Assembly: GCA_964473665.1 (NCBI GenBank)
Contig: CAYYPV010000008.1
Span: forward strand, 607 to 64,606
DNA: 64,000 nt
Direction: 5' to 3'
Source of the DNA: an uncultured Candidatus Bathyarchaeia archaeon
Lineage (GTDB): Archaea; Thermoproteota; Bathyarchaeia; RBG-16-48-13; CAYPFQ01
Part shown: positions 4,161 to 45,993 of the stretch, in pieces
Layout: every line of letters begins with the position of its first letter
Position numbering within the stretch: position 1 is the stretch's first letter
Made by a program: the position numbers and the translations under genes
The notes under the pieces: generated by a model
Databases searched by the model: none
Seen by the model: only the letters and a program-made list of their open reading frames with translations
Told to the model about the DNA's origin: nothing

Positions 4161-4187
4161 TTTTCATCCTCTCCGCCATTTACAGCA

Positions 4188-6026: not shown

Positions 6027-6028
6027 TT

Positions 6029-7165
6029 TTACATTTCCTCCTGCTTCGGTTTTCTTACAGTCCTAATTACTAAGTGAGCTGCAACTCCAACTGCGCTAGC
6101 GATTACTAGAGCTTCACCCCAGTCTTTAGCTGAATATCCTAATAATACTGGCAGATTTGGAAGTTCACCGTAAAGTGCGCCTTGGTTTCCCGGAATGTCG
6201 GGGAATGTTGGTTGAGCGCAGCCAATGCAAGGCGCGCCTGGCTCCACACAGTAGCTAACATGGTCATTCCACAGTCTAATAGCGCAATCTGTGTAAGTCA
6301 CTGGACCTTTGCAGCCGAGTTTGTATCGGCATCCTTCTTCTCCAGGTTTAAGCGCGAACTGCCCATGATCATAGTATGGTCGGAATGGGCACCTATTGTC
6401 ATGCATAAGATATTGATAGAATGCTTCAGGTCTACCGTATTCATCTAGAGTGGGCACAATGCCCTGAATGAGGTCAGCTAAGGTTAATATAAGGTGATCT
6501 GGATGACCTGGGCATGTGGCGCCTGCAACTATTGCTTTTCCAGCTATGCCGACATTAGTTAGACCCTGTTGATCTAGGAATTTTTGCAGCCCGATAGCGC
6601 CTGTCACGTTGTTAGCGACTGTAGAATATGAGAGGGGAGAATATTCGCCTGGCACTCCTCCAAATGAGCCGCAGTTTCCAAATGAAATTAAGACATCAGA
6701 GGAACCTAGAGTTTTTACAGCGGCTACTACAATATCCCTGAAATCTTTTCCGGCTACTGTAGTATATCCAGGATCCTGCATTGCTCCTTCAACTATTAGA
6801 ATTCGTTTTCCAGGTGTAGCGTTCGCCCAGACAGTATCCTTTAGGTACTCTAGTAATGAGCCTGATGCAGGATGTAACGTTTCTTGGTAGTCGGGCAGCC
6901 TTATGCCTAATGGTTGGTTGCCTACCATTGTAGTGTCGTTGCCGACTATTATTTCTGTGAGCAGTTGCACTACGTCTGGGTTGACTGCTTGAGCGAAAGA
7001 GACAGTACACCCACTGCACGCTGCTCCATGTAGCCAGCATATGTGCCAATAGTCAGTTGCTGCTGCTGCGAATACTTCCTTTATCTCTGGTTTGTATAGC
7101 TCGATTGTTGCTGCTGCGCCGATTACTCCTGCTAGCTTTATGAAGTCACGTCTTTTTATTTTCAT
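6029..7165 (-). CDS. [NiFe]-hydrogenase small subunit with twin-arginine signal
   Basis: N-terminus MKIKRRDFIKLAGVIGAAA carries the Tat motif RRxFxK. Multiple Cys clusters are present for Fe-S ligation. A C-terminal hydrophobic anchor helix is present. The gene is adjacent to the large subunit. Confidence 0.9.
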   Translation of the reverse strand: MKIKRRDFIKLAGVIGAAATIELYKPEIKEVFAAAATDYWHICWLHGAACSGCTVSFAQAVNPDVVQLLTEIIVGNDTTMVGNQPLGIRLPDYQETLHPASGSLLEYLKDTVWANATPGKRILIVEGAMQDPGYTTVAGKDFRDIVVAAVKTLGSSDVLISFGNCGSFGGVPGEYSPLSYSTVANNVTGAIGLQKFLDQQGLTNVGIAGKAIVAGATCPGHPDHLILTLADLIQGIVPTLDEYGRPEAFYQYLMHDNRCPFRPYYDHGQFALKPGEEGCRYKLGCKGPVTYTDCAIRLWNDHVSYCVEPGAPCIGCAQPTFPDIPGNQGALYGELPNLPVLLGYSAKDWGEALVIASAVGVAAHLVIRTVRKPKQEEM

Positions 7166-7323
7166 ACCCTATTTTTCCTCCAACAATTCTGAAAATTGGA
7201 TAACGTTTGTCATTTTTTGTCACTTTAAGGTATTTAATGCTTATCATCATTTGCAATACATCTTTTCGGATATTTAGAAAAAACATAACAATCATTAAAT
7301 TCATTTATGTGAGATACAAATCC

Positions 7324-8409
7324 ATGAAGTTAAGTGATTACCGGGATCCCGCCTTAACTAATGCGATCGCTGAGAAAATAAAAGATTTAACTTCGACAGC
7401 TCACGTTAAGTTTTGTCATATATGCGGCACTCACGAATATGCGGTTACTCATTATGGTCTGCGCACTCTTCTTCCAAGAAATCTTGAGGTAATAGCTGGG
7501 CCTGGCTGTCCAGTTTGTGTAGTCCCAGCTAGGGATATTGATGAGGCTGTTTGGCTTGCTCTTAACGGTGTAACTGTTGCAACTTTCGGCGATATGCTTC
7601 GTGTTCCGGGATCAGACATGTCTTTGGCCGATGCGAAAGCTAAGGGGGGCGATGTTCGGGTTGTTTACGGTGTTGATGAAGCAGTTAAGATGGCGTTGAA
7701 ATATCCTGAGAAAAGTTTTGTGTTTTTCGCTGTCGGTTTCGAAACTACCGTTCCAGCTAATGCTGCTGAAATATTAAGTGGCCCTCCGAAGAACTTGAGT
7801 TTTCTTGTTTCACATAGATTGATTCCTCCTGCTATGGAGCTTCTTCTTGGTGTAGGCGACCTTAAAATCGACGGCTTCATCTGCCCTGGACATGTTGCAA
7901 CGGTAATCGGCGTTAAGGCGTTCAGAATGTTTCCTGAAGTTTACAGTATGCCTACAGTGATAGCTGGCTTCGAACCTGTGGACGTGATGATTAGTCTTTA
8001 CATGTTGATGAAACAGTTGAAGGAGAACTCAGCCCGTGTTGACAATGAGTACACCCGTTCAGTAACTGAGGAAGGGAATGTTAAGGCTCAGAAAATTATT
8101 GAAGAAGTCTTTGAAGTTGATGGGGGTAATTGGAGAGGAATTGGAAGAGTACCGTCTTCAGCGTATAAATTGAAGGGTGAATATGCTAATTACGATGCCA
8201 GAGTAATATATGACATTAAAGTAGGTCCAGCGAAAGACATCCAGCCGGGCTGCAGCTGCCATTTAGTGATTATTGGAAAAATAAAGCCTAATGAATGCAC
8301 GATGTTCATGAAGACCTGCACGCCTGAAAATCCATATGGACCTTGCATGGTTTCGCATGAGGGTACTTGTCGTATATGGGCGGAACATGGTGAATATCAA
8401 ACTCTTTAG
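7324..8409 (+). CDS. hypD: Hydrogenase maturation factor HypD
   Basis: CGxH-type motifs (CHICGTHE, CPVCVVP, FAVGFETT, CPGHVA) are present. The ORF track begins at 7207, but the family-typical start is MKLSDYRDPAL at 7324. The gene is divergent from the hydrogenase structural operon. Confidence 0.85.
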   Translation: MKLSDYRDPALTNAIAEKIKDLTSTAHVKFCHICGTHEYAVTHYGLRTLLPRNLEVIAGPGCPVCVVPARDIDEAVWLALNGVTVATFGDMLRVPGSDMSLADAKAKGGDVRVVYGVDEAVKMALKYPEKSFVFFAVGFETTVPANAAEILSGPPKNLSFLVSHRLIPPAMELLLGVGDLKIDGFICPGHVATVIGVKAFRMFPEVYSMPTVIAGFEPVDVMISLYMLMKQLKENSARVDNEYTRSVTEEGNVKAQKIIEEVFEVDGGNWRGIGRVPSSAYKLKGEYANYDARVIYDIKVGPAKDIQPGCSCHLVIIGKIKPNECTMFMKTCTPENPYGPCMVSHEGTCRIWAEHGEYQTL

Positions 8410-8516: not shown

Positions 8517-8723
8517 ATGCCTAAAGGCGAATTTATGAGTGCTGAATTAAAAATTGCTGTCGACTCAATGAAATGTATTCCCTGCGGTGTTTGCGTTCTC
8601 ATATGCCCTAAAGATGCGCTTATGATCAATGAGCGGGGAGTTGAGCAGATTAAGGGTTGCAACGGTTGTGAGCTCTGCGTTAAATATTGTCCGCTTGTTG
8701 CGATTGAGGTGAAGAAAGAGTAA
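8517..8723 (+). CDS. 2x[4Fe-4S] ferredoxin
   Basis: Two CxxCxxCxxxCP motifs are present (CIPCGVCVLICP and CNGCELCVKYCP) in a 68-aa protein. Confidence 0.8.
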   Translation: MPKGEFMSAELKIAVDSMKCIPCGVCVLICPKDALMINERGVEQIKGCNGCELCVKYCPLVAIEVKKE

Positions 8724-9895
8724 TGTATGATGTCATAGTTGTCGGGGCTAGCCCTGCGGGTATAATGGCAACGTGGAAAGCTTCGTTATCCGGGGCAAGA
8801 GTTCTTCTTTTAGATAGAAAAACGCGTTTAGGGGTTGACCATCAACCTGCTGATACTACTTTTACGGGAATGTTTAAGCGAACTGGGCTGAATATTCGAG
8901 ATGAGTATTTGGTTCACAGAGTAAGAGGCATGCATATAGTATCTCCGGCGGGTTTTCGTTTCGCTATAAATAGTCCAGGTTTTGTTGTAGATAGGCAGGC
9001 GTTTGACCTCTATTATCTAGGTTTAGCTCATGATTCAGGTGCTGAAATTAAAGCGGGCGCCCTGGTAGTTGGGCTGGAAAATTCACTAGGAAAAAGGCGT
9101 GTTATTGTTAGGGAATTAGGTGAAAAGAAAATTTATGATGGAAAGATCATTGTTGGAGCAGACGGCATTGAATCTTATATTGCAAAGTGGGCTGGAATTA
9201 GACCTATGGTTCACCCTAATGAAATAGCGTCATCTGTTCAAGCGGAAATGATTGGGGTGGAAAATGAATATCCGGACTATTTCCAATACTTCTTAGGAAG
9301 TCAAGTAGCGCCTGGCTGGAAAGCTACTGTTTCGCCGAAGGGAGATTCTAAGGCTAGTGTGGGTGCATTTGTACGTAATGCACCTAGGCCTGCCATTTAT
9401 TATTTTAATAATTTTGTCTATAAAAATGGAAAAGAAAAATTTAGAGATGCAAAAATCTTGAAAATGCAGGCGGGAGGAGATCCTGTGGCTACAATACCTA
9501 ACCAAACTGTCGGCGATGGAGTAATGGTTGTTGGAGGCGCGGCTGGTCAAGCAGGATTGTCGTATGGAATGTTATGCGGTATTTTTTGCGGCGAAGTGGC
9601 TGCTGAATCAATTGAAGCTGATGACCAATCAAAGCCTTTTCTTTCCAAGTACCAGCAGAGATGGCGCAAGGAACTGTTAACGGAATATAGGTTAGGATAC
9701 TATATGCTTAAGGCGATTGAGAAAATGCGTGACGAGGATCTAGATAGTATTGTGAAAAGCCTTCAGGATACCGATGTTTCTGAGCGAATTCCTAGACATC
9801 AATCTCTATTTGGAAAGGGTATGTCTGGGGCGCTTTTAGTAATGCAGAAAGATCCCAGAATTCTTAATCTAGTAACACGTATATTGCCAGTTTAA
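8723..9895 (+). CDS. FAD-dependent geranylgeranyl reductase family oxidoreductase
   Basis: N-terminal YDVIVVGASPAGIMA Rossmann FAD motif and a GADGIES block. The gene is translationally coupled to the upstream ferredoxin, since the fd stop overlaps this start. Confidence 0.6.
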   Translation: MYDVIVVGASPAGIMATWKASLSGARVLLLDRKTRLGVDHQPADTTFTGMFKRTGLNIRDEYLVHRVRGMHIVSPAGFRFAINSPGFVVDRQAFDLYYLGLAHDSGAEIKAGALVVGLENSLGKRRVIVRELGEKKIYDGKIIVGADGIESYIAKWAGIRPMVHPNEIASSVQAEMIGVENEYPDYFQYFLGSQVAPGWKATVSPKGDSKASVGAFVRNAPRPAIYYFNNFVYKNGKEKFRDAKILKMQAGGDPVATIPNQTVGDGVMVVGGAAGQAGLSYGMLCGIFCGEVAAESIEADDQSKPFLSKYQQRWRKELLTEYRLGYYMLKAIEKMRDEDLDSIVKSLQDTDVSERIPRHQSLFGKGMSGALLVMQKDPRILNLVTRILPV

Positions 9896-11130
9896 TCATC
9901 GGATTCAAGCTTTGAAATAGGATAGGGTAAAATTACGCCCTCGGGTATTTTTTGGATATAGCTCTTTCTAAACTCGGAATTTTGCATAAGACAACTGGGC
10001 ACGTTAGTCGAAAAGATTTTATGTTTTCTTATGCGTTTCCATATTTTTTGCAGCGTTTCATCTCGAACGTTCCCAAATGTTAACGGAATATATGCGCACG
10101 GGGTTACGAAGCCATGTGGATTGACGTAAACCCATCTTTTTCCAGCTATGCAACCAAGTCCTGTTGGACCTTTCATACAAGAGGTCGTGGAAACTCTAGG
10201 TGTTCGCGAGTTTGGTGAACTGTAAGTTTTTTCTAGTTGAACTAACCGTTCTCTATCTTTCACAGTCAGAATGACATCTTCTCTCCTGAGCAATTTTCCC
10301 GTTGGAATGATATCTGCTACTGTAATTTCATGCACCCCAAGTTCCTCTGAGAAGTGTATTAAATCGTCAATGTCGCCGTTATTGAGGCGATCCGTAGTTG
10401 CGTACGTGGAGACCCCGACAAGGAGACCGGCGTTTAGGCATGCCTTGATGGTATTTACAGCTTTGCTGTGCGCTCCTTTTAGTTGAACTAGTCCGTCATG
10501 TATGTTTGAATCTCTGCTGTGGAGAACTATGAAGATAGCGTCTAACCCCGCATTCTTCAATTTTTTTGCAGTATCGTCCGTAAAGGTTGCTGCGGGAGTG
10601 AATAATACGCACCAGCATTCTTTGGATTTAACGTATTTTATGATGTCGAAAACATCTTTTCGTAAGATGGGGTCGCCTCCATAAATTGTGACGCTGAAAG
10701 CCCCCATTTGAACAACATCATCGATTATGGATTTCAGCTCTTTATTTGTAAGTTCATTAGCGTAGTCGTAGCTACCCATGTAGCCGCAGTAGATACAATC
10801 GCATGCACATGCACGCGTAACAGCTATTGTAGCTGCCCCTGGATTCCTTTGCTTTGTTAATTCAGATTTTATTTCACCCCACATAGCTCTGCTGAAAGTT
10901 TTACTTGGAATGGGTGGAAAGAAAAGTGAAAAAACAATGTAGTCTTTGTTTGCAAATGCTGGCTTTTCTTTACATACAAATTCTTTGAACAGGTTTAATG
11001 CTGGTTTAGCGAAGGGGGATAAGGGTCCTTCACTACAGACTTCGTTAACAACCCCGTTATTGACTTCAGCGCTGATCTTCAGACCGGGCTGCCGTAGCAA
11101 GGTTACCTTCAAATTAGTCCTTTCTCCCAT
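9892..11130 (-). CDS. Radical SAM protein with C-terminal twitch/SPASM-like Cys domain (paralog A)
   Basis: CACDCIYCGY (CxxxCxxC) lies at residues 108-115. The C-terminal GCIAGKRW...TPC...SC auxiliary-cluster region follows. An N-terminal domain of about 100 aa is shared with paralogs B and C, with motifs GPLSPF and FFPPIPSKTFSR. Confidence 0.7.
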   Translation of the reverse strand: MGERTNLKVTLLRQPGLKISAEVNNGVVNEVCSEGPLSPFAKPALNLFKEFVCKEKPAFANKDYIVFSLFFPPIPSKTFSRAMWGEIKSELTKQRNPGAATIAVTRACACDCIYCGYMGSYDYANELTNKELKSIIDDVVQMGAFSVTIYGGDPILRKDVFDIIKYVKSKECWCVLFTPAATFTDDTAKKLKNAGLDAIFIVLHSRDSNIHDGLVQLKGAHSKAVNTIKACLNAGLLVGVSTYATTDRLNNGDIDDLIHFSEELGVHEITVADIIPTGKLLRREDVILTVKDRERLVQLEKTYSSPNSRTPRVSTTSCMKGPTGLGCIAGKRWVYVNPHGFVTPCAYIPLTFGNVRDETLQKIWKRIRKHKIFSTNVPSCLMQNSEFRKSYIQKIPEGVILPYPISKLESDD

Positions 11131-12433
11131 CTAGTTTGCTTATTGGATAAGGTAAATTTTTTTCATTGATACTGTCTTGAATCTTCTTAAAGTAATGTTG
11201 CTTGTAGTAAGGATCAGCCCATGCGCAGTTTTTTGGTGCTTTTTTAAATAGAGGATGCTTCCTCATCGCCTTCCAGATATCCTTCATGCTTTGATTGCGT
11301 GTATTCCCAAATGAAATGGGGACATGAAAGCAAGGCATAACTTCACCTGTGGGGGATAGCCACATCCATTTTCGACCTGCAAAACACCCAATAATTTTGG
11401 GATCGCGGAGAATGAGGGAGCCGCACACTCTGGATCCTTCCAGTTCGTTAGCTTCGTTTTGGAATTTTACTAATCGTGCCCGATCTTCTTCTTTCAATAC
11501 GTCATTTTCACGATACGCCCATCTACCTGCTGGAACAACTTCGTCGATTAAAATCTCTTGCACCCCTATAGAGCTACAATATTGATAAAGATCATTCAGC
11601 GCTTTAATATCTGAATTTCCTGGAGCGGCGGTATATTCTATTATTACGACCAATCCCTCTTCCACCGCATACTTAACGTCTGATGCAACTTTTTCAAAAA
11701 TCCCGTTAATTCCTCTGAACTTGTCGTGAATATTGGGGTATGGGCTGTCAAGGCTTAGATGGAGATAATCAAGCCCTGCCTCCTTCAACTTTTTCACGTA
11801 TGCTTGAGTTAAAAGAAAGCCGTTGGTTATCAGATGACTGGTGGCTTTATTTTTATCGATATGTGAGATCAAATCAAAGATATCTTTCCGAAGTGTAGGT
11901 TCGCCTCCTTCAAAGCTTACGTTGTAGGTTCCCAGTTCAATTGATTGGTCTATAGCATTACAGAGCTCTTCCGTTGATAATTCTGGATCACCTCTTATGC
12001 CGAACGCTATACAATGTTGGCAGGTGCATTGGCATTTGCTTGTAGTCAATATCATTAGACTTTCAGGTGTGTATTTGCCGAAGAGGCGATTGTTTATTTG
12101 GGCTTTAATAAGTCGGTTGAAGGGTCCGCTAGGAGCAGGAGGTATTAAACTGGATATGACAACATCATTTCCGCGGACGGCGGTCACTTTCTCCAACGAC
12201 GCATACGTGTTAAATCCTTCACATATGGGCCTTGCCAGTCTGGAAAGTGGACCTTGAGCAGTTACGTGCGCCTTTTTGCCTTCAAGTTCGAGGAAAAGCT
12301 CAAAGCCTAACCCTTTGTAGATGAAATGTTTCACAATGGACTCCACTATGTTTTGTAAAAAAATAAGATTAATAACAAAAAGCTTTCTATGGATTAAGCT
12401 GTGCGCGCTATGATAGATTATCAAGTGTATCAT
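11114..12433 (-). CDS. Radical SAM protein with twitch/SPASM-like domain (paralog B)
   Basis: CQCTCQHC radical SAM motif. C-terminal GCFAGRKW...MPC...NC region. N-terminal domain motifs GPLSRL and LIPPAPSGPFNR. The first 29-33 aa of the ORF-track model overlap the divergent neighbour. A GTG at 12346 or 12334 is a more plausible start. Confidence 0.7.
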   Translation of the reverse strand: MIHLIIYHSAHSLIHRKLFVINLIFLQNIVESIVKHFIYKGLGFELFLELEGKKAHVTAQGPLSRLARPICEGFNTYASLEKVTAVRGNDVVISSLIPPAPSGPFNRLIKAQINNRLFGKYTPESLMILTTSKCQCTCQHCIAFGIRGDPELSTEELCNAIDQSIELGTYNVSFEGGEPTLRKDIFDLISHIDKNKATSHLITNGFLLTQAYVKKLKEAGLDYLHLSLDSPYPNIHDKFRGINGIFEKVASDVKYAVEEGLVVIIEYTAAPGNSDIKALNDLYQYCSSIGVQEILIDEVVPAGRWAYRENDVLKEEDRARLVKFQNEANELEGSRVCGSLILRDPKIIGCFAGRKWMWLSPTGEVMPCFHVPISFGNTRNQSMKDIWKAMRKHPLFKKAPKNCAWADPYYKQHYFKKIQDSINEKNLPYPISKLDGRKD

Positions 12434-13609
12434 CGGAGAGGGCTTTCAGTAAATATTGAGGGCGATGAAAAAAAATTAAGACTAAGAGCTCACGGTCCTC
12501 TCGCAGTTTTTACCAGTCCAATCCTAAATAAAATAAACAGGATGCTTGAAAGTGAAAAGCCGATAGCTGTCAAAAAAGATGCAGTCATATTTTCAACTTG
12601 GTTACCGCCAATTCCAAGCGGATCCTTTAAAAGGTTAATAGATGCGGAGATCGATATCGCTCTGCACCATAAATACGTGCCTCAAGCTGTGTCTCTTAAC
12701 GCTTTCAAGCAATGTAGTTACAGTTGCGAGAACTGCAATATGGTGAGATCTCCCGGACCTGAACTTTCAACTGAGGAATTAAAGGGGTTCATCGATCAGG
12801 TGGTAGATCTCGGCGCAGTCACGATAGGTTTTTCGGAGGGAGATCCGCTTACACGCGAAGACATAGTGGATTTGGTTAGATATGTTGATAAGAATAAGGC
12901 AATTGCCAGCATATTCACTCCTGGTGCAATGTTGACTGAGTCGCAGGCTGAGAATTTAAAGAGGGCGGGACTTTACGCCGTGATCATAGGTTTCTGCAGT
13001 CCTATTCCAGATGAGCATGATGCGGCTAGAGGGGTAAAGGGAGCTTTTTCAATGGCGACGAAATCCATAAAAAATGCATTAGATGCAGGGTTATATGTCT
13101 CGATTCATACGCATGCAAATCCACGTATGATTGCAGAGAAAAAGCTCGACGGCCTCTACGACCTTGCATCTCAGCTGAATGTCCATGAGTTTACAATATG
13201 GGAAGCAATTCCTTCATGGGGTTACCGCGATAAGGATGATTTAATGCTGAACAAAGCGCAGAGAGATTACATTCTAGAAATGCGTAGAAAATTGAATAAA
13301 ATGCCGGCTGGCCCGAGAATATTTTCTATGAGCTTCTTTGAGGGACCTGACTTTTTAGGATGTATGGCTGGTAGGCGGTGGCTGAATTTGGTGGATTCGG
13401 GAGACTTAACGCCGTGCATTTATACGCCTATATCTTTTGGAAATATAAAAAATGAGAAAGTTGCAGATATATGGAAAAAAATGCGTGAGAACCCATTGTA
13501 CAGACGTAGTGAAAAATCATGCATGATGCTAAATCCCGAATTTAGATCCAAGTTTATCAAAAAAATACCTTATAACGCTAAGCTTCCAGTTCCTCTAGAA
13601 ACTTTATGA
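12401..13609 (+). CDS. Radical SAM protein with twitch/SPASM-like domain (paralog C)
   Basis: CSYSCENC radical SAM motif. C-terminal GCMAGRRW...TPC...SC region. N-terminal motifs GPLAVF and WLPPIPSGSFKR. An alternative start ATG at 12410 (MIDYQVY) avoids overlap with paralog B. Confidence 0.7.
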   Translation: MRAMIDYQVYHRRGLSVNIEGDEKKLRLRAHGPLAVFTSPILNKINRMLESEKPIAVKKDAVIFSTWLPPIPSGSFKRLIDAEIDIALHHKYVPQAVSLNAFKQCSYSCENCNMVRSPGPELSTEELKGFIDQVVDLGAVTIGFSEGDPLTREDIVDLVRYVDKNKAIASIFTPGAMLTESQAENLKRAGLYAVIIGFCSPIPDEHDAARGVKGAFSMATKSIKNALDAGLYVSIHTHANPRMIAEKKLDGLYDLASQLNVHEFTIWEAIPSWGYRDKDDLMLNKAQRDYILEMRRKLNKMPAGPRIFSMSFFEGPDFLGCMAGRRWLNLVDSGDLTPCIYTPISFGNIKNEKVADIWKKMRENPLYRRSEKSCMMLNPEFRSKFIKKIPYNAKLPVPLETL

Positions 13610-13677
13610 TTTCTTGTAGCCTATTCTTAGTTATAAAAAATTTTTACATGGTTGTTTAATTTCAGGAATTATTAATT

Positions 13678-14676
13678 CTATAATTTTGGGATAGCCATCA
13701 GTATATTGTATGCTGCAGCCGCATTGATTATAACAAGCATGATTGTGTAGTTGATTACGCCTATATATGCGAATTTTATGTGAGCTATTTGCTCACTTGA
13801 ATGGTTATAGGCATTTATCGTTGCACGGATCTTGAAGAGACCGATTATAAAATACAATGCTAGGAAAAACCACGGTAGTGCGAAGACGTACCAAACTACT
13901 ATGAGCCAAAGATATTCAGCTATGCTCATGGTGAATGTAAATAGTATGGTTTGTTTGGATGTTAAGGGGTTAAAACGCATAGAGTCTTTATCGTGGTAAG
14001 CTAAACAACCGATTATACTTGCAAGGTATATGACAGCTGCTTGCCATGAAAGTATTTTCCCGGGTGCTACGACAGCTATTCCGCCAGCTACTATTAGCCC
14101 GCTTAGGGATCGGTATATTCGTCTTTGGAGTTCTGTAATTTTTTTAAAAGGTGGACTGGCAGAGTAAGTAAATCCCCAGACAAGCATCAGTAGAGCCACA
14201 GCGAAACATGTGAAATTGAATACGAAATTTGCAACATATAGGCAAAGCACTGTCTCAATAACAATAAAAGAAATAACAAGTTTAGGTGACAGCAGTCCAG
14301 TTACAAGCGGTAATGTTGAATTTGGCGGACCTAACCTTTCATCTTCACCTGTCCACCAATCATATAGCATATCGGCCTGTGAGATGACCCTGGTCAGCAG
14401 TCCTGCCACAAATATGCCTAATATTAGCTTCCATAAAGGAAGAATAGGCACTCCGATGCTCATAAACAAAAGTGCACCAGCACTAGCAGTTAATGCACCC
14501 CATGGCAACCATAGTATTCTATGTACGCAGAAAATCGCTTGAATTTTAGCCTTAAGATCTTTACCAGTAGGCCCAGCTACGCCGAACCCGATATCCCATA
14601 TAGTAGGGTTAAACTGATGAATTAGCCGGTCAGCCTTATCGCTATTCTTCGCCATATTCACATTTCTCACAAACAT
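13678..14676 (-). CDS. Polytopic membrane protein, divergent UbiA-prenyltransferase-like
   Basis: At least eight hydrophobic segments. An Asp-rich loop, ADMLYDWWTGEDERLGPPNSTLPLVTG, resembles the UbiA NDxxDxxxD...RPL..G motif. A second HDKDS motif is present. The assignment is tentative. Confidence 0.35.
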   Translation of the reverse strand: MFVRNVNMAKNSDKADRLIHQFNPTIWDIGFGVAGPTGKDLKAKIQAIFCVHRILWLPWGALTASAGALLFMSIGVPILPLWKLILGIFVAGLLTRVISQADMLYDWWTGEDERLGPPNSTLPLVTGLLSPKLVISFIVIETVLCLYVANFVFNFTCFAVALLMLVWGFTYSASPPFKKITELQRRIYRSLSGLIVAGGIAVVAPGKILSWQAAVIYLASIIGCLAYHDKDSMRFNPLTSKQTILFTFTMSIAEYLWLIVVWYVFALPWFFLALYFIIGLFKIRATINAYNHSSEQIAHIKFAYIGVINYTIMLVIINAAAAYNILMAIPKL

Positions 14677-14811
14677 TAAACTTATCGACTTTACTGTTAA
14701 TCAATACCTCGCATAGAATATACTGCAATTTAGCAGCACTTCTCTATTCCTCGTAACCATTTTTGTAAAGTCTGTATGCTCTACCTTTTCCTGGGTCAAG
14801 GACGTTTATTC

Positions 14812-15309
14812 CTAGTAAACGTATGGAATGAGCTTTTTACTATGTTGCATATAGTCCTGATATTCTTTTCCGAATTTCGCGATGAGTACGCGTTCCTCGA
14901 TTTTTATTCTGTAAAGAATAATGGGTATTATGAAGATTGTTATTAGAAGGCCGTATAAGCTGTGAAAGAATATGGGAACAAGAAAATAGCCTAATATAAC
15001 CCCAAAGTAAATGGGGTGCCGGACATTTTTGTAAATGCCGTATGTGATCAACTTGTGTTTTGGCAATGTTCTTACCATTAGCGACCACTGTTTACCCAGA
15101 GTACGTTTAGCTTGTATGCCGATAGCAACTCCTATTGTGCCAAGTGTTAGTCCAGCGAAACTTACAATATCAAAGCGGTAAATCATTCTTTGAACAAAAG
15201 TGAAGTCTAAGACACTTATGGCTAAGGCGGAAAACCAAATTATTCCTCCGAGGAGGAGTTCTATGTCTAATTGCCTTTTTTTTTTGCATGTCTTAAATAG
15301 CGCCTTCAT
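14812..15309 (-). CDS. Isoprenylcysteine carboxyl methyltransferase / phospholipid methyltransferase family membrane protein
   Basis: Conserved NVRHPIYFGVILGYFL motif (RHPxY...G) typical of the ICMT/PEMT family. Four to five TM helices, 165 aa. Confidence 0.7.
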   Translation of the reverse strand: MKALFKTCKKKRQLDIELLLGGIIWFSALAISVLDFTFVQRMIYRFDIVSFAGLTLGTIGVAIGIQAKRTLGKQWSLMVRTLPKHKLITYGIYKNVRHPIYFGVILGYFLVPIFFHSLYGLLITIFIIPIILYRIKIEERVLIAKFGKEYQDYMQHSKKLIPYVY

Positions 15310-15483
15310 ATTTTGGCTATACCTCTTCAGGCATTTTCTTTTACACCTGATTATATCGTTTTAGGCGTTTAGACTAATCTTGAATCTTCGCTAACAAATC
15401 CTTCCTTTTTGCCTGAAACTCTTCTTAGGTTATTCGACCGACGCCTAAAGGTTCGTTCTGCCAGGTATTCGTCAGGCTACTCG

Positions 15484-16362
15484 CTATTTGCGTAAAGATA
15501 GTGCCTTCTTCAACAGAGTGAAGTTGTAAAAATCTTCTGGAACTTTTTTTATGTAACCCAACTCCACCATAAGGTTAGTGACCTGCGTCATTGCTTTTAC
15601 GCTTTCAGATATGTCGATATGAGGGCGATTATAGTTCAAAGCTTCTCTAATGGTTTCAGCGGAAATTCCTATGTAGTTGGAACTGATCTCTGCAGCTTCA
15701 TCAGGATTAGTGCTGCAAAATTTCTCAGCTTTTATACATGCGTTTATGAATTTTAAGGCTAAATCGGAGTGGTTTCGGAGATAATCATCTGTTACGGTTA
15801 TACTACAACCGGGTGTTTTCGGAAAAATATCTTTTCCTCTTACTAGAATCTTTGCCACCCCCAGCTTAACCATCATCGTGGCATAAGGCTCGACATTAGT
15901 TGTTGAATCAACAGCTCCACTTATCAGAGCGAGAATAGCCGCATCCCCGCTTGGAAACCTAAGTATCTTTGTATTCCTAGATGTTATATTGTATTTTTTG
16001 AAAAAAGCTTGAGAGGTTAAATCTTTCATTCCACCTTCATTGGGCAATCCAATTCTTTTTCCTTTAAGTTCATAAAAATCGTTTACATTCGCATCATTGC
16101 GAACTACTGTAACTGGTTCTTCATAACCTGAACCAGCGATAACTACCATCGGATCTCCATTGGCTCTTCCGCTTACAACTCGTGTCCAAGGCATAACTGC
16201 AAACGAAATTTCGCCGGAGATCAATTTATTCGGCAGCATCCAAGCTGTCGGTTCAACTGTTAAAGAAATGTTTAGATTTTGCTCTTTGAAAAATCCCTTT
16301 TCGTACGCTATGTATGTAGGCATTTGACATACGCCTCTTATAACTCCAACTCCGATGGACAA
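15484..16362 (-). CDS. NMT1/THI5-like (substrate-binding-protein fold) protein, apparently cytoplasmic
   Basis: YEKGFFKEQNLNISL and GLPNEGGMKD blocks are typical of NitT/TauT-type SBP and NMT1 domains. No signal peptide or lipobox is present. The start is TTG with a GGAGGT RBS 8 nt upstream. Confidence 0.5.
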   Translation of the reverse strand: MSIGVGVIRGVCQMPTYIAYEKGFFKEQNLNISLTVEPTAWMLPNKLISGEISFAVMPWTRVVSGRANGDPMVVIAGSGYEEPVTVVRNDANVNDFYELKGKRIGLPNEGGMKDLTSQAFFKKYNITSRNTKILRFPSGDAAILALISGAVDSTTNVEPYATMMVKLGVAKILVRGKDIFPKTPGCSITVTDDYLRNHSDLALKFINACIKAEKFCSTNPDEAAEISSNYIGISAETIREALNYNRPHIDISESVKAMTQVTNLMVELGYIKKVPEDFYNFTLLKKALSLRK

Positions 16363-16468
16363 TGCATTACCTCCAATTTTCTAGCGAATAACATCAAGAT
16401 TTGTCAGAATGTCATTTAAAAGTATATATTTAAGAATGCAAACCTTACGAAAAAATAGGTAAGAGCAA

Positions 16469-17386
16469 ATGTCAGTTTCACTACGTGACATACTTTACGG
16501 ATTTGCAGCACCGAAAGAGCGCACATTAAAGAATAGAATTTTAGGTTTCGTCACACTTCAAAAACCAGCAGTAACAGCTATGGGCGTACCATTCGCGTTG
16601 GCCGGCGCAGTATTAGCAGAGAGGCAATTAGGGATAACTTGGCGACTAATAATCTCTCAAAAACTTATGTCATTTATTTTAGGATTACTCGCGGTCTGGT
16701 TGCTAATTAGTGCTACGCTTACCATTAACAGTATAATCGATGTTGAAAGAGATAAGAAAAAGTACACTATGCGCCCTATAGCAACGGGGCTGATTAAAAG
16801 ATGGGAGGCCACTGTGTATGCGTTAGTCATGGCTGTCGTTGCCTTGATTATAACGTATTTAACTTTCAATTGGGCAGCTGCAGCTATAGGATTTCTTGCT
16901 TTAGTGCTGGGAACAGTTTATGCTGCCTATACACGCGACAAAATCGGTTATTTAACTATGGTTTTTATTCCAGCACTTATGCCGATTGGGGGCTGGGCAG
17001 CGATATCAATTGGAACTTTATTAACGCCTTTACCTTGGTTGCTTTTTCTCTGTCTTATTTTCCATCAAACTGCGCATGGCATTGCTGCTCAGGCACATTA
17101 CCCGTATGTTAAGGCTTTCTTTGTAAGACCTCGACCAAACATAGAAGCGATGATGTACCGTCTTTGCTTTGTGATTGAACCCTTCATAGTACTTTTGATG
17201 TATTACTACGTAACCATAAATTTGCTATTTTTAGTGATAGTATTATTTTTAACAATCTATGGTCTACATTCAGCCTCATACCTGAAAGAGCCCAGAACTT
17301 TTGAGAAAGGCGCAAAAGCACGTGTGGCTATCGGTAATTACGGTATCATCTTCTTTTTGTCATTAAGTATTCTAGCTGGAATTTAA
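16469..17386 (+). CDS. UbiA family prenyltransferase (DGGGP-synthase-like)
   Basis: NSIIDVERDKKKYTMRPIATG matches the UbiA NxxxDxxxD...RP..G first Asp-rich motif. About 8 TM helices, 305 aa. Confidence 0.75.
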   Translation: MSVSLRDILYGFAAPKERTLKNRILGFVTLQKPAVTAMGVPFALAGAVLAERQLGITWRLIISQKLMSFILGLLAVWLLISATLTINSIIDVERDKKKYTMRPIATGLIKRWEATVYALVMAVVALIITYLTFNWAAAAIGFLALVLGTVYAAYTRDKIGYLTMVFIPALMPIGGWAAISIGTLLTPLPWLLFLCLIFHQTAHGIAAQAHYPYVKAFFVRPRPNIEAMMYRLCFVIEPFIVLLMYYYVTINLLFLVIVLFLTIYGLHSASYLKEPRTFEKGAKARVAIGNYGIIFFLSLSILAGI

Positions 17387-17497
17387 AGAGGAAAATATTT
17401 TTTTCTTATTAATGGTAATGCTTAGAAAGGTTTGAATATACTAAAAATATTCTCACCTATTGTTGATTGTGCGACAATAAATGATAAGTGATTAAGA

Positions 17498-18709
17498 TTG
17501 ACTTTGAAATATGATGTCGTGGTGGTTGGGGCGGGTCCTGCTGGCTCGATGGCGGCAAAGCACGCTGCTGATAAAGGATCCAAGGTATTGTTGGTTGAGC
17601 GGAAGAATGAAGTTGGAGTTCCGAGCCACTGTGCAGGCTTTATTATGAGGCGCGCGGAAAACTATGTAAATTTAAACGATGAGATAGTCGCGAATAAGAT
17701 TTATGGGTTCAGATGCTATGGCCCAAATGGGATTAGCGCGGTTGCCAGAAGCAAAGATTGTATTGGTTATACTATTAGGCGTGAAGCTTTAGACAAGTAC
17801 ATTGCTAACCAAGCGATTAATTCTGGCGTTGACTTGATGATAGGTGGGACGGCTGTTGGTGCGCGGAGAGTTTCAGGCGAAGTTAAAGTGAATATTATGC
17901 ATTTAAATGAGAAAATTCCTGTTGATGCAAAAATTATAATTGGTGCAGACGGGGTAGAGTCGAATGTTGCTAAATGGTTTGGGATGAAGAAACCTTCGGA
18001 TTTGATGTCCTGTATGCAGTTTGATGCTTTAAGTGAAAGCCCTGAATTACCACGCGATTTAATTGAAATGTACATAGGTCAATGTTGGACGCCTAAGGGG
18101 TTCGGATGGATTTTCCCTAGAGGCAACGACGTAGTTAAGGTCGGTGTAGGTGTGAAAGCGGGGAAAAAACCAGCCGTATCATATTTGAAAGACTTAATTG
18201 ATTTACATCCTGTAGTATCTAAGAAACTTGCGCAAGCAAAAATTGTTAGATTAAGTGGAGGAATAGTACCATTAAGCGGTCCAGTTGAAAGAACTGTTGA
18301 TAACAATATTGTATTGACTGGCACAGCTGCCGGATTGATTAATCCTCTGAGCGGCGGAGGCAACGATTATGCGATAGTTTGTGGAGGTTTAGCTGGCGAT
18401 ATCGCGGGAGAAGCTGCTGAAGAAAAAAATTTTTCCAAAAAATTCTTATGTAAATATGAGGATCAATGGAAGAATATTTTTGGTAAAGAGCTTAGAAATG
18501 GATATTGGGGAAGAATGGTTTTTCAAAATATGCCTGATAAATTATATCAAAAGTTTATTCCAACTTTGCAAGAGGTGGAAGATTTAACGAATATGTTTGT
18601 GAGCTACGATGTTGGACGTCTACTTGATGTGGTTGCTAAAAAATCGCCAGTATTATCTTCATTTATTAAAAGTGTTAAGCGCTTTGGTTTTTTGCCTACT
18701 TTAAATTAA
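17498..18709 (+). CDS. Geranylgeranyl reductase (digeranylgeranylglycerophospholipid reductase family)
   Basis: YDVVVVGAGPAGSMAA FAD motif. The conserved catalytic SHCAGF Cys is present. GADGVES and PKGFGWIFPRG blocks are typical of archaeal GGR. Confidence 0.85.
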   Translation: MTLKYDVVVVGAGPAGSMAAKHAADKGSKVLLVERKNEVGVPSHCAGFIMRRAENYVNLNDEIVANKIYGFRCYGPNGISAVARSKDCIGYTIRREALDKYIANQAINSGVDLMIGGTAVGARRVSGEVKVNIMHLNEKIPVDAKIIIGADGVESNVAKWFGMKKPSDLMSCMQFDALSESPELPRDLIEMYIGQCWTPKGFGWIFPRGNDVVKVGVGVKAGKKPAVSYLKDLIDLHPVVSKKLAQAKIVRLSGGIVPLSGPVERTVDNNIVLTGTAAGLINPLSGGGNDYAIVCGGLAGDIAGEAAEEKNFSKKFLCKYEDQWKNIFGKELRNGYWGRMVFQNMPDKLYQKFIPTLQEVEDLTNMFVSYDVGRLLDVVAKKSPVLSSFIKSVKRFGFLPTLN

Positions 18710-18786: not shown

Positions 18787-19908
18787 TTATTTGAGCATTT
18801 TCTTCAAAATCTCAGCTATGTACTCTAACTGTTCGTCTTGTACTTTTGGATGAATGGGTAGCGATAATACTTGTCTTGCAGCTGTCTCTGTTTTAATTAA
18901 TGTACCCTTTTCAAATGGGAATTGCTCTCTATAATAGGGCATAAGGTGTATAGGCACGGGATAGTAAATTGTTGCATCAATTTTCTTCTCCCTAAGTTTT
19001 TCAACAACCTTGTTTCGTTTACCTGCGTTAGCACCTCTTAAACGAACAGTGTATACGTACCAACTGTGCTTGTAGCCTTCAGGTACGGCGGGAAGTTTAA
19101 GTTTCCCAATTCCACTAAGTTTACTTGTTAATGTTTCAGCGTTTTTTCTTCTAGTATCTAAAAAGCGCGGCAGTTTGGAGATTTGCGCTACGCCTAACGC
19201 GCCACATATTTCACTCATTCTGTAGTTGTGTCCTACCATTATTGACTTGTATTCTTTTTGTTCTCCGTGATTTCTTATTTCGCGCAGCGTTTCAGCATAC
19301 TCAGAGTTATTCGTTGTTATCATTCCGCCTTCTCCAGTAGTCATGTTCTTTGTTGCGTAGAAACTAAAGCAGGCCATATCGCCTAAAGATCCAGTTTTTT
19401 TGGTCTTGTATTCAGCACCGTGAGCTTGAGCAGCGTCCTCTATTACTGTTACGTCGTGTTTATGAGCTAATTCTAGTATTGGATCCATATCACATGCTAA
19501 ACCGTAAAGATGCGTCGGAATAATTGCCTGTGTTCTCGACGATATTCGTTCTTCAAGATTTTCTAAGTCCATACAGTAAGTATCGGCATTTATATCGACA
19601 AATACAGGCTTTCCTCCAGCTAACACAACTGCCTCGGTTACCGCCACAAAACTGAAACTTGGAATTAACACTTCGTCACCCGGCCTCAGCCCGATAGCCA
19701 TAAGAGCTGCATGAAGAGAGGCTGTTCCACTGCTAAGCGCCACAGCGTATTTTGTCCCAATAAATCTTGCGAACTCTTGCTCAAATTGAGACACGTAAAA
19801 ACCGCCTCCTCCTTTTTCAGTCAATATTCCGCTTCTCAGAACCTTTAAAACAAGTTGAATTTCTTCGTCGCCCAGAATAGGTTGATTTATCGGTATTGAT
19901 AACCTCAT
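18787..19908 (-). CDS. DegT/DnrJ/EryC1/StrS family PLP-dependent sugar aminotransferase
   Basis: The whole protein follows the family pattern. This includes ALSSGTASLHAALMA, a DAAQAHGA block, and the FSFYATKNMTTGEGG region carrying the lysine. Confidence 0.85.
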   Translation of the reverse strand: MRLSIPINQPILGDEEIQLVLKVLRSGILTEKGGGGFYVSQFEQEFARFIGTKYAVALSSGTASLHAALMAIGLRPGDEVLIPSFSFVAVTEAVVLAGGKPVFVDINADTYCMDLENLEERISSRTQAIIPTHLYGLACDMDPILELAHKHDVTVIEDAAQAHGAEYKTKKTGSLGDMACFSFYATKNMTTGEGGMITTNNSEYAETLREIRNHGEQKEYKSIMVGHNYRMSEICGALGVAQISKLPRFLDTRRKNAETLTSKLSGIGKLKLPAVPEGYKHSWYVYTVRLRGANAGKRNKVVEKLREKKIDATIYYPVPIHLMPYYREQFPFEKGTLIKTETAARQVLSLPIHPKVQDEQLEYIAEILKKMLK

Positions 19909-20178: not shown

Positions 20179-21510
20179 ATGATTCATAATCCTAGCTTTT
20201 TTAAGTTAAGACAATACTCTAGTACATACACTCGAGGGATACTCTTGGAACCGCCAACCCTTCTTTTAATTCCTGTTACTTCTTGGACACATAGAGATAG
20301 AGCCATAGAGCCATCAAAAAGGGCTCGTGAACTTTTAGAGGAAGCAGGTCTGAAGGTTTTCGGACCTATAAACCCTATAACGAAGATTGAGGAGGTGCCG
20401 AAAACTAAGGAGGAGTTTGATGCCACAGTTGTCTTTATTGCAAGCGGAGGGTCAGCTGAGCTAGCTGTTCCATTGATTAAGACCAGAAGAGCGCTTATGT
20501 GGGCTTACCATGAAAATAATAGTTTAGCTTCAGCATTGAGTGCAAGAGAAAAACTTGTGGCTGAGGAAGCGTGGCAAGGTCAAATATTATATAATAGCCT
20601 AAACTATGTCCCAAAAGAGATTGTTGCGGAAGCCCAAGCCAATAAATTAATTCGTAGTATGAAAAGTGCAAAGATTGGTCTAGTGGGTGATGAAGATGAT
20701 TACAATGCGCACACCCGCGACGTGGAAATGCTTAAGGCAATTTTCGGAATAGACGTTTCTCTCGTAGATTTTGATGCCGTAAAACAAGAATGGGCAAACG
20801 TTTCTGAAGATGCTGCTGGAAAAATAATTGATGAACGGTTATCAAAATTTGAATTAGTTGAACCCAATAAACGGGATTTAATAAAGGCAGCCAGGCTCTA
20901 TTTGGCCCTTAGAAAGATATCCGCTGACAAAAATCTGGATGCGATAACTGTTGACTGCTTTAAGTTTCTGAAGAAAACAGGCACATTACCATGCATCGCT
21001 TTTGCTCTGCTGAATGATGATGGGATGAACGCTGCTTGCGAAGCGGATTTACGTGCAGCAACACTGATGTTGATATATAGAACTTTGACCGGTAACCCGT
21101 CTTGGATCGCTAACCTAGTTCAAGTTGATTCGAAGCTTGGAACGATAACGCTGTGCCACTGCACTGCAGCAACCAGTCTTGCAGAGACAGGTCGCACTAT
21201 TCGTATTAGAGACCATTTTGAATCAGGACAGAGCGTATCGCTTGATGTACCTTTAAAGAGACAATTGGCAACCATCGCTAATATTCAGACCAAACCTACT
21301 AAGTTAACGGTCACCACAGGCGAAGTCATAGATTCCCAGATGGGAAATTTAACAATTTGTCGAACTCAAGCTAAAATAAAATTAGCTGGAAACATTGAAA
21401 TGCTCTTGGAACAAACTGGTAACCATCAGGTTCTAGCTTATGGTGATTTCGGAGACCTTTTTAAAGCGCTCTCTGAAAAAATTCCAGCATTACAAACGAT
21501 TGTAATTTAA
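20179..21510 (+). CDS. Hypothetical protein; weak resemblance to L-fucose/L-arabinose isomerase-like proteins
   Basis: 443-aa soluble protein. NAACEADLRAATL and CHCTAATS blocks are reminiscent of the metal-binding region of sugar isomerases. I cannot verify this without a search. The N-terminus of the ORF-track model is probably too long. Confidence 0.25.
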   Translation: MIHNPSFFKLRQYSSTYTRGILLEPPTLLLIPVTSWTHRDRAIEPSKRARELLEEAGLKVFGPINPITKIEEVPKTKEEFDATVVFIASGGSAELAVPLIKTRRALMWAYHENNSLASALSAREKLVAEEAWQGQILYNSLNYVPKEIVAEAQANKLIRSMKSAKIGLVGDEDDYNAHTRDVEMLKAIFGIDVSLVDFDAVKQEWANVSEDAAGKIIDERLSKFELVEPNKRDLIKAARLYLALRKISADKNLDAITVDCFKFLKKTGTLPCIAFALLNDDGMNAACEADLRAATLMLIYRTLTGNPSWIANLVQVDSKLGTITLCHCTAATSLAETGRTIRIRDHFESGQSVSLDVPLKRQLATIANIQTKPTKLTVTTGEVIDSQMGNLTICRTQAKIKLAGNIEMLLEQTGNHQVLAYGDFGDLFKALSEKIPALQTIVI

Positions 21511-21733
21511 CATTTTATCAGTTAAATCTACATTTTACCTTTCTTTGACTTTCTCGCCTTTGCCGTTGACAAATACATAGTATAAAAATGCTTCATATTT
21601 CAAAGTCAAACTTTAATTAGATGTATTAAAGGCGTAATATGCGTAATAAGTTGCGCTTCATCTTACCGTAAGGCATATAAATTAAAGTTAGTATGTTTGG
21701 TTTTAGCATTTTGAATATTTGGAGAGGATAAAT

Positions 21734-37383: not shown

Positions 37384-37427
37384 GAGAATAAAAGTGCCTA
37401 ACGCCTCTAATAGACACTGAATTTAGT

Positions 37428-38849: not shown

Positions 38850-38855
38850 AGGTTT

Positions 38856-40043: not shown

Positions 40044-40044
40044 A

Positions 40045-45774: not shown

Positions 45775-45993
45775 TGTTCAGCCTTCCATGTATTTGCATA
45801 CATTTGCCTTTCCGTAGCTTTGATTGATATCTCACATAATCTATCTTACACAATAAGAGACATTTATCCATCTTGCTGCTTATGTTGGCTGATGTAGAGA
45901 GAATTCGAAGTAGGTTGTCTGAAGCATAATTGCGTAAAGTCTATATTAAGAGGAAATTATGAACATCAAATCACAGATTAGGAATGTTGGAGA

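Follow-up and report, generated by a model that had tools for sequence, protein, structure and literature searches.

A conserved archaeal module of radical SAM, prenyltransferase-like and reductase-like genes as a candidate pathway to a prenylated redox carrier

The 64,000-nucleotide stretch of an uncultured Candidatus Bathyarchaeia archaeon analysed here (contig CAYYPV010000008.1 of assembly GCA_964473665.1; hereafter the window) carries three paralogous radical S-adenosylmethionine (SAM) genes, together with genes for a flavoprotein resembling geranylgeranyl reductase (GGR), a divergent, putative UbiA-superfamily membrane prenyltransferase and a soluble protein of the NMT1/THI5 fold (Table 1). 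These genes form a module that recurs in other archaea and is most likely a prenylated-redox-carrier type of cluster built from uncharacterised subfamilies. We put at about one in two the probability that it makes methanophenazine or a closely related prenylated lipophilic redox carrier, used most likely by cytochrome-containing relatives of the Methanosarcinales. A first-pass annotation of the same DNA, made from the letters alone, had read the region as an ether-lipid tailoring locus. An isoprenoid-linked radical SAM locus survives from that interpretation, but the substrate class it named is probably wrong, and the outcome it had set against itself, a triplet acting on a cofactor, is now the more likely one.

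Five protein families, F0 to F4, were defined by homologue searches and gene-context look-ups. The conserved core, present in about 28 loci, comprises the NMT1-like protein (F3), the divergent UbiA (F4), the large radical SAM paralogues (F0) and the GGR-like flavoprotein (F1), usually with a fourth, small radical SAM protein (F2; about 330 residues, nearest to the PTO1314 family) that is absent from the window. Its carriers are metagenome-assembled genomes (MAGs) labelled Methanocellales (Met12, Met33H, UBA148) and Methanonatronarchaeia. Large radical SAM (rSAM) genes number three per genome: types A and C, which correspond to paralogues 2 and 3 of the window, and type A', the sister of A. The usual order is NMT1-like, UbiA-like, rSAM-A and GGR-like, with small rSAM, rSAM-A' and rSAM-C on the opposite strand; it is seen in many of the Methanocellales-labelled MAGs, including the closed 1-Mb genomes Met12 and Met33H. 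Methanonatronarchaeia hold the set in two loci, NMT1-like/UbiA-like/rSAM-A and rSAM-C/rSAM-A'/small rSAM with or without the GGR-like gene. In the window the order is rearranged, and an ICMT-type methyltransferase gene is inserted between the NMT1-like and divergent UbiA genes, in this lineage only.

Of the neighbourhood as first drawn, then, the NMT1-like, divergent UbiA, radical SAM and GGR-like genes are conserved, whereas the ferredoxin, the ICMT-type gene, the second UbiA, the canonical GGR, tetraether synthase (Tes), myo-inositol-1-phosphate synthase (MIPS) and the DegT aminotransferase lie beside the core in none of the other loci. The clustering first noticed is genuine and far from a chance arrangement: the data support a distinct radical SAM subfamily in a non-random, isoprenoid-related module that is kept across class-level lineages even where it is split.

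The three window paralogues are 32–36% identical to one another over their full length, and PF04055 scores of 65.1, 78.4 and 46.4 bits (cut-off 29.5) place them in the radical SAM superfamily. Alignment of 56 distinct family members revealed exactly six invariant cysteines, those of the CX3CX2C motif (invariant in 56 of 56) and three towards the C-terminus, which make up a CX17C part containing GX4C, plus one more. The seven-cysteine SPASM motif (CX9-15GX4C ... CX2CX5CX3C ... C) does not occur in the triplet, and the Pfam SPASM match spans only profile positions 1 to 49 or 52 of 67, so that the ‘SPASM’ domains named at first are reduced to half-domains with three invariant auxiliary cysteines. 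These cysteines and the half match indicate a twitch-like protein with a single auxiliary cluster held by three protein ligands, not a full SPASM domain. In MoaA, a 3-Cys auxiliary cluster has an open iron site that binds a polar substrate; by analogy, the triplet may offer a similar open site, which would suggest coordination of a polar substrate. All members further share an N-terminal domain of about 95 residues, with an invariant PPxPSxxFxR motif and no Pfam match at E up to 10, which appears in a predicted model as a small β3-α-β2-α unit.

The first-pass view of the triplet as a distinct subfamily is supported. The best NCBIfam matches, NirJ2 (TIGR04055) and AhbD (TIGR04545), reach 108–138 bits against a cut-off of 500, and every score for AhbD, NirJ2, PqqE, MoaA and similar families lies far under the family cut-off. 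None of the three paralogues has the Tes/GDGT-MAS model NF045702 among its listed matches; in the PDB sequence matches of paralogue 2 the Tes structure (PDB 7TOL) comes seventh, at 34 bits. The triplet lacks a B12-binding Pfam match such as would mark GrsA/GrsB, and it has neither the N-terminal PqqD-like recognition element (RRE) nor the adjacent precursor gene of maturases of ribosomally synthesised and post-translationally modified peptides (RiPPs). An AlphaFold (AF2) model of paralogue 2, with a mean confidence score (pLDDT) of 85.7, gave SkfB, SuiB, BlsE, MoaA, PqqE and anSME as its best structural matches.

The paralogues differ in how widely they are shared. Orthologues of paralogue 2 (48–66% identical) always adjoin the NMT1-like and divergent UbiA genes, and those of paralogue 3 (45–63% identical) correspond to arCOG00943 in Methanonatronarchaeum thermophilum AMET1 and in Met12. 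Paralogue 1 lies on a long branch of the tree with no close orthologue (at most 37% identity to every family member), keeps all six invariant cysteines and sits where other loci have the small fourth radical SAM gene. The gene context of the remoter radical SAM homologues (P0032, P0099) showed them to be unrelated single genes.

The GGR-like protein falls below the GGR family cut-off (Table 1) and also matches BchP/ChlP at 90 bits. Across its family, PA(D/N)T (PADT in the window gene) stands in place of the SHCAG cysteine motif, GWK(A/S)TxSP (GWKATVSP in the window gene) in place of YxWxFP, and the GxxGxG loop is shortened by a four-residue deletion. Judged from its sequence, this is a distinct branch of the GGR superfamily with a remodelled active site, one that would fit regiospecific reduction of a single isoprene unit. 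Orthologues 35–60% identical occur in 21 loci, and Methanosalsum zhilinae and Methanosarcinaceae MAGs have forms 38–40% identical. In Methanosarcina acetivorans, the GGR homologue MA1492 shows unusual regiospecificity.

Two UbiA-type proteins had been annotated. The second is a clear member of the family, although its 32–36 bits against the digeranylgeranylglyceryl phosphate (DGGGP) synthase models PRK12882/PRK12883 show that it is not a canonical DGGGP synthase. The divergent one, F4, has no Pfam or NCBIfam match of its own sequence in the window and is a probable UbiA member by way of its orthologues, which are 52–75% identical, always follow the NMT1-like gene and carry PF01040 (recorded for about half of the orthologue clusters). 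The family is rare, with only 24 clusters among 5.8 × 10⁹ proteins; a profile search of 1.84 × 10⁹ representatives returned two family representatives and one weak outlier, which led to the separate pair formed by the second UbiA and the canonical GGR, and a profile search of the PDB gave no match. The first Asp-rich motif, DMLYDxxxxEDER...PLVTG, does not vary within the family, nor does PLxxG; the second Asp-rich motif is reduced to YHDKD. Weak NCBIfam matches were to BchG/ChlG (bacterio)chlorophyll synthase, the commonest (12 of 20 members), ubiA_other, MqnP and 4-hydroxybenzoate prenyltransferase, and none of the 20 members matched the DGGGP synthase models (cut-off about 300 bits) at E up to 1. 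This leaning towards aromatic and tetrapyrrole prenyltransferases, and not towards DGGGP synthase, counts in favour of a carrier as product.

The NMT1-like protein is leaderless and, as first annotated, cytoplasmic, and its orthologues (48–70% identical) always lie upstream of the divergent UbiA gene. THI5 is among its closest solved relatives. THI5-type hydroxymethylpyrimidine phosphate (HMP-P) synthase chemistry was nonetheless rejected: the fold is present, but the active-site Lys62, which forms the PLP imine, and His66, the substrate histidine, align to Met and Arg. Leaderless bacterial homologues (37–46% identity) are followed by genes for PaaK/F390-synthetase-like adenylate-forming enzymes (L089 10001–12413; L090 2006–6610), preceded in one locus by a DVU_1556/UbiE-like methyltransferase gene; this context was set aside as a guide to the module, being a different and apparently uncharacterised system.

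The next-closest radical SAM relatives (33–35% identity) belong to M. zhilinae, Methanothrix, ‘Ca. Methanocrinis’ and Methanosarcinaceae MAGs. In M. zhilinae DSM 4017, a cultured member of the methanophenazine lineage, and in Methanosarcinaceae MAGs the radical SAM gene stands in a tight UbiA–GGR-like–radical SAM operon. Its flavoprotein has the F1 signatures (PA(N)T, GWKS and the deletion), and its radical SAM protein has the F0 N-domain motif and six cysteines and is nearest to paralogue A' in the tree. A genome-collection scan with back-translated peptide patterns had missed the Methanosarcinales, for whose sequences the patterns were unfit; they were recovered through cluster membership.

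Phyletic patterns were taken from the orthologue clusters of Suzuki et al. 2024 for 21 genomes (PMC11176372), in whose tables the Met12 module is ATZ61235–61241. The rSAM-C (cluster 1077, arCOG00943), rSAM-A (cluster 1105, arCOG00942) and GGR-like (cluster 1112) clusters have one identical pattern, 0000|1|00|1|0|111111111111 (PMC11176372 data). They are present in Met12, Methermicoccus and 12 of 12 Methanosarcinaceae and Methanotrichaceae (13 of 13 Methanosarcinales genomes) and absent from Methanoflorens, three Methanocella, two Syntrophoarchaeum and Methanoperedens. HdrD, HdrE and FpoA follow this pattern with three exceptions, being present in Methanoperedens and Syntrophoarchaeum and absent from Met12. 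Methanoperedens carries the futalosine route to menaquinone and has no methanophenazine (PMC5244752), and Syntrophoarchaeum was assigned an F420H2:quinone oxidoreductase by Suzuki et al. (PMC11176372). Of the lineages that have membrane-bound electron transport, those not assigned a quinone are therefore the ones with the module families, and the presence of these families in Methanosarcinales and absence from menaquinone users points to a role interchangeable with that of quinones. Methanonatronarchaeia, for their part, have HdrDE, cytochrome b enzymes and ‘methanophenazine-like carriers’ (PMC9796771). One further cluster of the same data, cluster1083 (arCOG04388; Met12 ATZ60771), a 134-residue uncharacterised protein encoded elsewhere in Met12, has exactly the same 21-genome pattern and could be a further component of the pathway.

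The module is also expressed. Proteomics of M. thermophilum AMET1 detected AMET1_1035–1037 and AMET1_0072–0074, with the NMT1-like AMET1_1037 abundant at 3–20 times the radical SAM proteins (PMC5852551 supplement). In situ expression of the Met12 module is near the genome median, about 0.9 (PMC11176372).

From gene content, family features, synteny, phyletic pattern and expression we infer substrate, product and every catalytic step as follows. The soluble NMT1-fold protein would bind or convert a polar, probably aromatic, precursor. Three large radical SAM paralogues, joined in most genomes by the small fourth, would build or remodel the head group by successive radical C–C or C–N couplings or by decarboxylations, each large paralogue having one 3-Cys auxiliary cluster with a putative open iron site and the shared N-domain. 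The UbiA-type membrane enzyme would join a polyprenyl chain to the head group, and the GGR-like flavoprotein would saturate a specific double bond of that chain, with electrons given in the window by the coupled ferredoxin. In the window lineage only, the inserted ICMT-type enzyme may methylate the product.

A more specific version of this scheme is tentative, and we think it somewhat more likely wrong than right: the module could be the missing archaeal route to methanophenazine-type carriers, in which three or four twitch radical SAM enzymes build an N-heteroaromatic head group without Phz proteins, UbiA O-prenylates it and the GGR-like enzyme sets the single saturated isoprene unit, the window, Met12 and Methanonatronarchaeia lineages making a variant carrier via their own NMT1-fold enzyme and divergent UbiA. 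The methanophenazine pathway is unknown beyond the C25 prenyl synthase, and PhzF is not consistently present (PMC3017947, PMC5852551, PMC5244752). Among the 47 window open reading frames (ORFs) scanned no match to Phz families was found, the rest of the genome lying outside the scan.

Most acetate- and methyl-derived methane comes from methanogens whose membrane electron carrier is methanophenazine. If the carrier assignment is right, the module would give a genomic marker for methanophenazine versus menaquinone use in uncultured archaea, a target for the inhibition of methanogenesis and access to new radical SAM chemistry. The window consolidates the candidate genes in one cluster, and orthologues in genetically tractable Methanosarcina make the question testable by knockout. 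Were the product a lipid or another metabolite, this would still be a conserved, expressed and uncharacterised pathway that survives in a streamlined 1-Mb genome.

Several observations weigh against a redox carrier. Met12 keeps and expresses the module without HdrDE, Fpo or a hydrogenase cytochrome b, and a carrier there would have few known partners, only Rnf and MmcX. No orthologues of the NMT1-like or divergent UbiA proteins were detectable in Methanosarcinales; both are restricted to the lineages of the window, Met12 and the Methanonatronarchaeia. Nor is the UbiA encoded in the M. zhilinae operon an orthologue of the divergent UbiA of the window. The third large radical SAM cluster (arCOG00941) is found in Methanocella as well, and the small radical SAM (cluster 951, arCOG00938) in Methanoflorens. 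The phyletic argument covers 21 genomes and uses orthologue clustering by another group. In the window the module adjoins a Vht/Hya-type hydrogenase with cytochrome b, but this adjacency is not conserved and was given little weight, and Methanocella has the Hya/Vho cytochrome b without the module. The literature yielded no methanophenazine measurement for any organism with the full module, and a search that left out subscription literature found no paper assigning the module genes. These genes are uncharacterised, and chemistry leading from primary metabolites to phenazine is not predictable from their families.

The best-placed competitor, which we nevertheless consider unlikely, is that the same radical SAM, UbiA and GGR-like logic yields a prenylated metabolite with no respiratory function, such as a membrane-anchored antioxidant, a pigment, a prenylated tetrapyrrole or a vitamin-like cofactor. 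The synteny evidence serves it equally well, and retention of the module by Met12 without HdrDE, Fpo and cytochrome b speaks for it, as do the chlorophyll-synthase matches of F4, the BchP/ChlP match of the GGR-like protein and the fact that NirJ2 and AhbD, the best radical SAM matches, are tetrapyrrole enzymes. Such matches lie, however, far under the family cut-offs, and occurrence in all Methanosarcinales with absence from menaquinone-using relatives argues instead for the quinone-interchangeable role. To our knowledge no such compound is known from these archaea.

Ether-lipid tailoring, the original proposal, now looks less likely still. It would have the radical SAM enzymes add rings, cross-links or methyl groups to archaeol or glycerol dialkyl glycerol tetraether (GDGT) chains, with the GGR-like and UbiA-like proteins acting on the same lipids. 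There is chemistry in its favour, since Tes and Gms are radical SAM enzymes with auxiliary clusters that form C–C bonds in archaeal lipids (PMC13459092), Tes is detectably related to paralogue 2, and several paralogues on one substrate recall GrsA/GrsB. The conserved core includes a GGR-family gene; Tes, MIPS and a canonical GGR lie within 10 kb in the window; and that Met12 keeps the module in a genome of 1 Mb would suit a housekeeping function in the membrane. The Tes-like enzyme noted at first is indeed a bona fide Tes. That all the neighbours act on ether-lipid substrates, however, was not an observation, and the lipid genes (Tes, MIPS, canonical GGR, second UbiA, ICMT) and the ferredoxin are not conserved neighbours of the module.

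The organisms tell against it as well. AMET1 and HMET1 (Methanohalarchaeum) both carry the module, and AMET1 expresses it, yet their core lipids are ordinary: archaeol and GDGT-0, with 7% GDGT-1 in AMET1 only and no unusual core modification (PMC6423904). Methanocalculus, which is not among the lineages found to carry the module, has GDGT-1 too. Met12 has canonical DGGGP synthase, GGR, geranylgeranyl diphosphate (GGPP) synthase and Tes besides the module, so the module is neither a substitute for core lipid genes, a role considered and rejected, nor obviously needed for them. Chain tailoring offers no part to a soluble NMT1-fold protein or an extra prenyltransferase, and the twitch-like triplet with its three auxiliary cysteines is unlike both the full SPASM enzymes Tes and Gms and the B12-domain Grs. 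The faint family matches of F4, none of them to DGGGP synthase, speak against it too. Finally, the phyletic pattern fits no known lipid trait, Methanoperedens being without the genes; it follows that of methanophenazine users.

That the triplet consists of RiPP- or cofactor-type maturases (PqqE-, MftC-, SkfB- or SuiB-like) whose substrate would be a ribosomal peptide or, if the suicide enzyme THI5 is a guide, the NMT1-like protein itself, is very unlikely: the full-length structural alignment of paralogue 2 with the RiPP maturases SkfB and SuiB, an N-terminal extension placed where such enzymes carry a peptide-recognition domain, the excess of AMET1_1037 over the radical SAM proteins and the kinship with THI5 all favour it, but the lineages share no conserved small ORF within the module or next to it, Pfam gives no match for the N-domain, the THI5 residues are replaced, and we know of no obligatory linkage of RiPPs to a prenyltransferase and a GGR-like enzyme. 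The small-ORF result comes from an all-against-all comparison across 30 loci, run first unmasked, which returned only shadow ORFs of large genes, and then on intergenic sequence alone. The only conserved small intergenic ORFs were rRNA/tRNA shadows and a SAMP2 leader, within the Met12 group alone, and the intergenic gaps of the window held no precursor peptide candidate.

Window genes were identified from the ORF listing with Pfam and NCBIfam scans (Table 1), which located every gene named in the first-pass annotation.

Table 1. Genes of the module and its surroundings, in window coordinates.
Feature	Position	Strand	Length	Evidence and remarks
Tes, bona fide	100–1647			NF045702 673.7 bits (cut-off 450)
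Myo-inositol-1-phosphate synthase (MIPS)	2173–3273
Vht/Hya-type [NiFe] hydrogenase, twin-arginine (TAT) small subunit and cytochrome b	3468–7165			HypD also flanks the module
Ferredoxin, 2x[4Fe-4S]	8517–8723	+	68 aa	Pfam Fer4 families
GGR-like flavoprotein (F1)	8723–9895	+	390 aa	TIGR02032 126.9 bits (cut-off 158.8)
Radical SAM paralogue 1	9892–11130	-	412 aa	Pfam Radical_SAM and partial SPASM
Radical SAM paralogue 2 (type A)	11114–12334	-	406 aa from GTG	ORF extends to 12433
Radical SAM paralogue 3 (type C)	12401–13609	+	402 aa	Pfam; divergently transcribed from paralogue 2
Divergent, putative UbiA-superfamily membrane prenyltransferase (F4)	13678–14655	-	325 aa from ATG at 14655
ICMT/PEMT-type membrane methyltransferase	14812–15309	-	165 aa	Pfam ICMT 51.1 bits
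NMT1/THI5-fold (periplasmic-binding-protein fold) protein, leaderless, cytoplasmic (F3)	15484–16362	-	292 aa	Pfam NMT1 (PF09084) 84.2 bits
Second UbiA prenyltransferase	16469–17386	+		Pfam UbiA 81.4 bits, clear member
Canonical GGR	17498–18709	+		TIGR02032 238.2 bits (cut-off 158.8); all GGR features present
DegT aminotransferase	18787–19908

The TAA stop of the ferredoxin gene and the ATG of the GGR-like gene share one base (TAATG, at 8723), which agrees with the translational coupling first described, and the ferredoxin is probably the electron donor to the GGR-like protein. A similar overlapping ferredoxin/GGR pair occurs in M. thermophilum (AMET1_0182/0183); no such ferredoxin adjoins the GGR-like genes of the other module loci. 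Radical SAM paralogues 1 and 2 overlap by 17 nt. The GTG at 12334 is the start of paralogue 2, whose 406-residue product is 100% identical to HYB93267.1, from a third-party-annotation (TPA) MAG labelled ‘archaeon’. The F4 ORF extends to 14676 (332 residues, polytopic), and the ICMT-type protein scores 80.8 bits with NCBIfam isopcys_mtase, under the cut-off of 160.

The second UbiA and canonical GGR form a separate pair, whose orthologues (72% and 79% identical) stand together, without the module, in two Joint Genome Institute (JGI) contigs (L093/L094). Their neighbours there encode another UbiA paralogue, a PNPOx-like protein, an Fe–S protein, an aldehyde:ferredoxin oxidoreductase, a GlcD-like FAD oxidase and a CCG-domain protein.

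Hydrogenase genes lie near parts of the module in two distant lineages, the window (3468–8409) and M. thermophilum, where HypB is two genes from the small radical SAM gene (AMET1_0074–0076; PMC5852551 supplement); the association is not seen in the remaining loci and may be coincidence. In the Met12/Met33H group the module adjoins a stretch without called genes (L001 2390–8206; L005 16800–19400), and conserved shadow ORFs suggest that it holds an rRNA operon and a tRNA gene.

Elsewhere in the window, a complete carbon monoxide dehydrogenase/acetyl-CoA synthase (CODH/ACS) operon, Mch, an MtdB-like dehydrogenase and a MetF/MetV-type methylene-H4 reductase (34506–41454, 44767–46917, 49066–50633) were found, and no Mer was seen within it. 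CODH/ACS, Mch and the MetF/MetV-type reductase indicate a Wood–Ljungdahl archaeon, placed by this analysis in the Halobacteriota, and the whole combination recalls C1 metabolism of the ANME-1 and Syntropharchaeia type. The thermosome (Cpn60/TCP-1) gene is present as two overlapping ORFs in different frames (21719–22378 and 22375–23379) that cover profile positions 1–170 and 175–488, the result of a frameshift, an assembly error or a pseudogene. Beside DegT, a 443-residue protein at 20179–21510 has an L-arabinose-isomerase central domain and weakly matches sulfoquinovose isomerase, at 90.9 bits (cut-off 700); it probably belongs to sugar metabolism outside the module.

Among known systems, MoaA, BlsE, AhbD/NirJ and PqqE/SkfB are the closest relatives of the triplet in sequence and structure, and MoaA shares the 3-Cys auxiliary cluster; AhbD, NirJ and BlsE are radical decarboxylases. 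Against this group stand scores far under the cut-offs, the extra N-domain of about 95 residues, and the lack of an RRE and of a peptide substrate. Tes, Gms and Grs resemble the module in bringing radical SAM chemistry to isoprenoid substrates, Tes being a detectable homologue. Tes and Gms use auxiliary Fe–S clusters to form C(sp3)–C(sp3) bonds and have a full SPASM domain with two auxiliary clusters, and Grs has a B12-binding domain (PMC13459092), whereas the triplet is marked by a single 3-Cys auxiliary site and a unique N-domain. The known enzymes are, moreover, single genes unlinked to UbiA or NMT1-like genes, and the Tes of the window is likewise separate from the module.

In the kinds of parts it combines, the module recalls the futalosine route together with MenJ. 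That route makes a membrane redox carrier using the periplasmic-binding-protein-fold enzymes MqnA/MqnD, the paralogous radical SAM enzymes MqnE/MqnC, which build the head group, and the UbiA-family MqnP, and the GGR-family MenJ reduces one isoprene unit. The same component types occur in the module, which is absent where the futalosine pathway is present (Methanoperedens). No module gene, however, belongs to the Mqn families: there is no VitK2_biosynth, MqnC or MqnE match, the NMT1-like protein matching Pfam NMT1 instead, MqnP and MenJ scores are 22–24 bits, and the radical SAM proteins, with their twitch domain, resemble MoaA/PqqE/AhbD and not the CofH/MqnC/MqnE type.

For methanophenazine itself, the known biosynthetic part is the C25 geranylfarnesyl diphosphate synthase MM_0789 (PMC3017947). 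The module contains no prenyl synthase, and bacterial phz genes are probably not involved. The NMT1-like and divergent UbiA proteins are missing from Methanosarcinales, so the product made here may differ from authentic methanophenazine. Synthesis of a polyprenyl ether-linked redox carrier calls for a head-group pathway, an O-prenyltransferase in the membrane and a reductase that acts regiospecifically on the first isoprene unit. For each of these the module has one candidate, and its radical SAM and GGR-like families are present in every Methanosarcinales genome compared.

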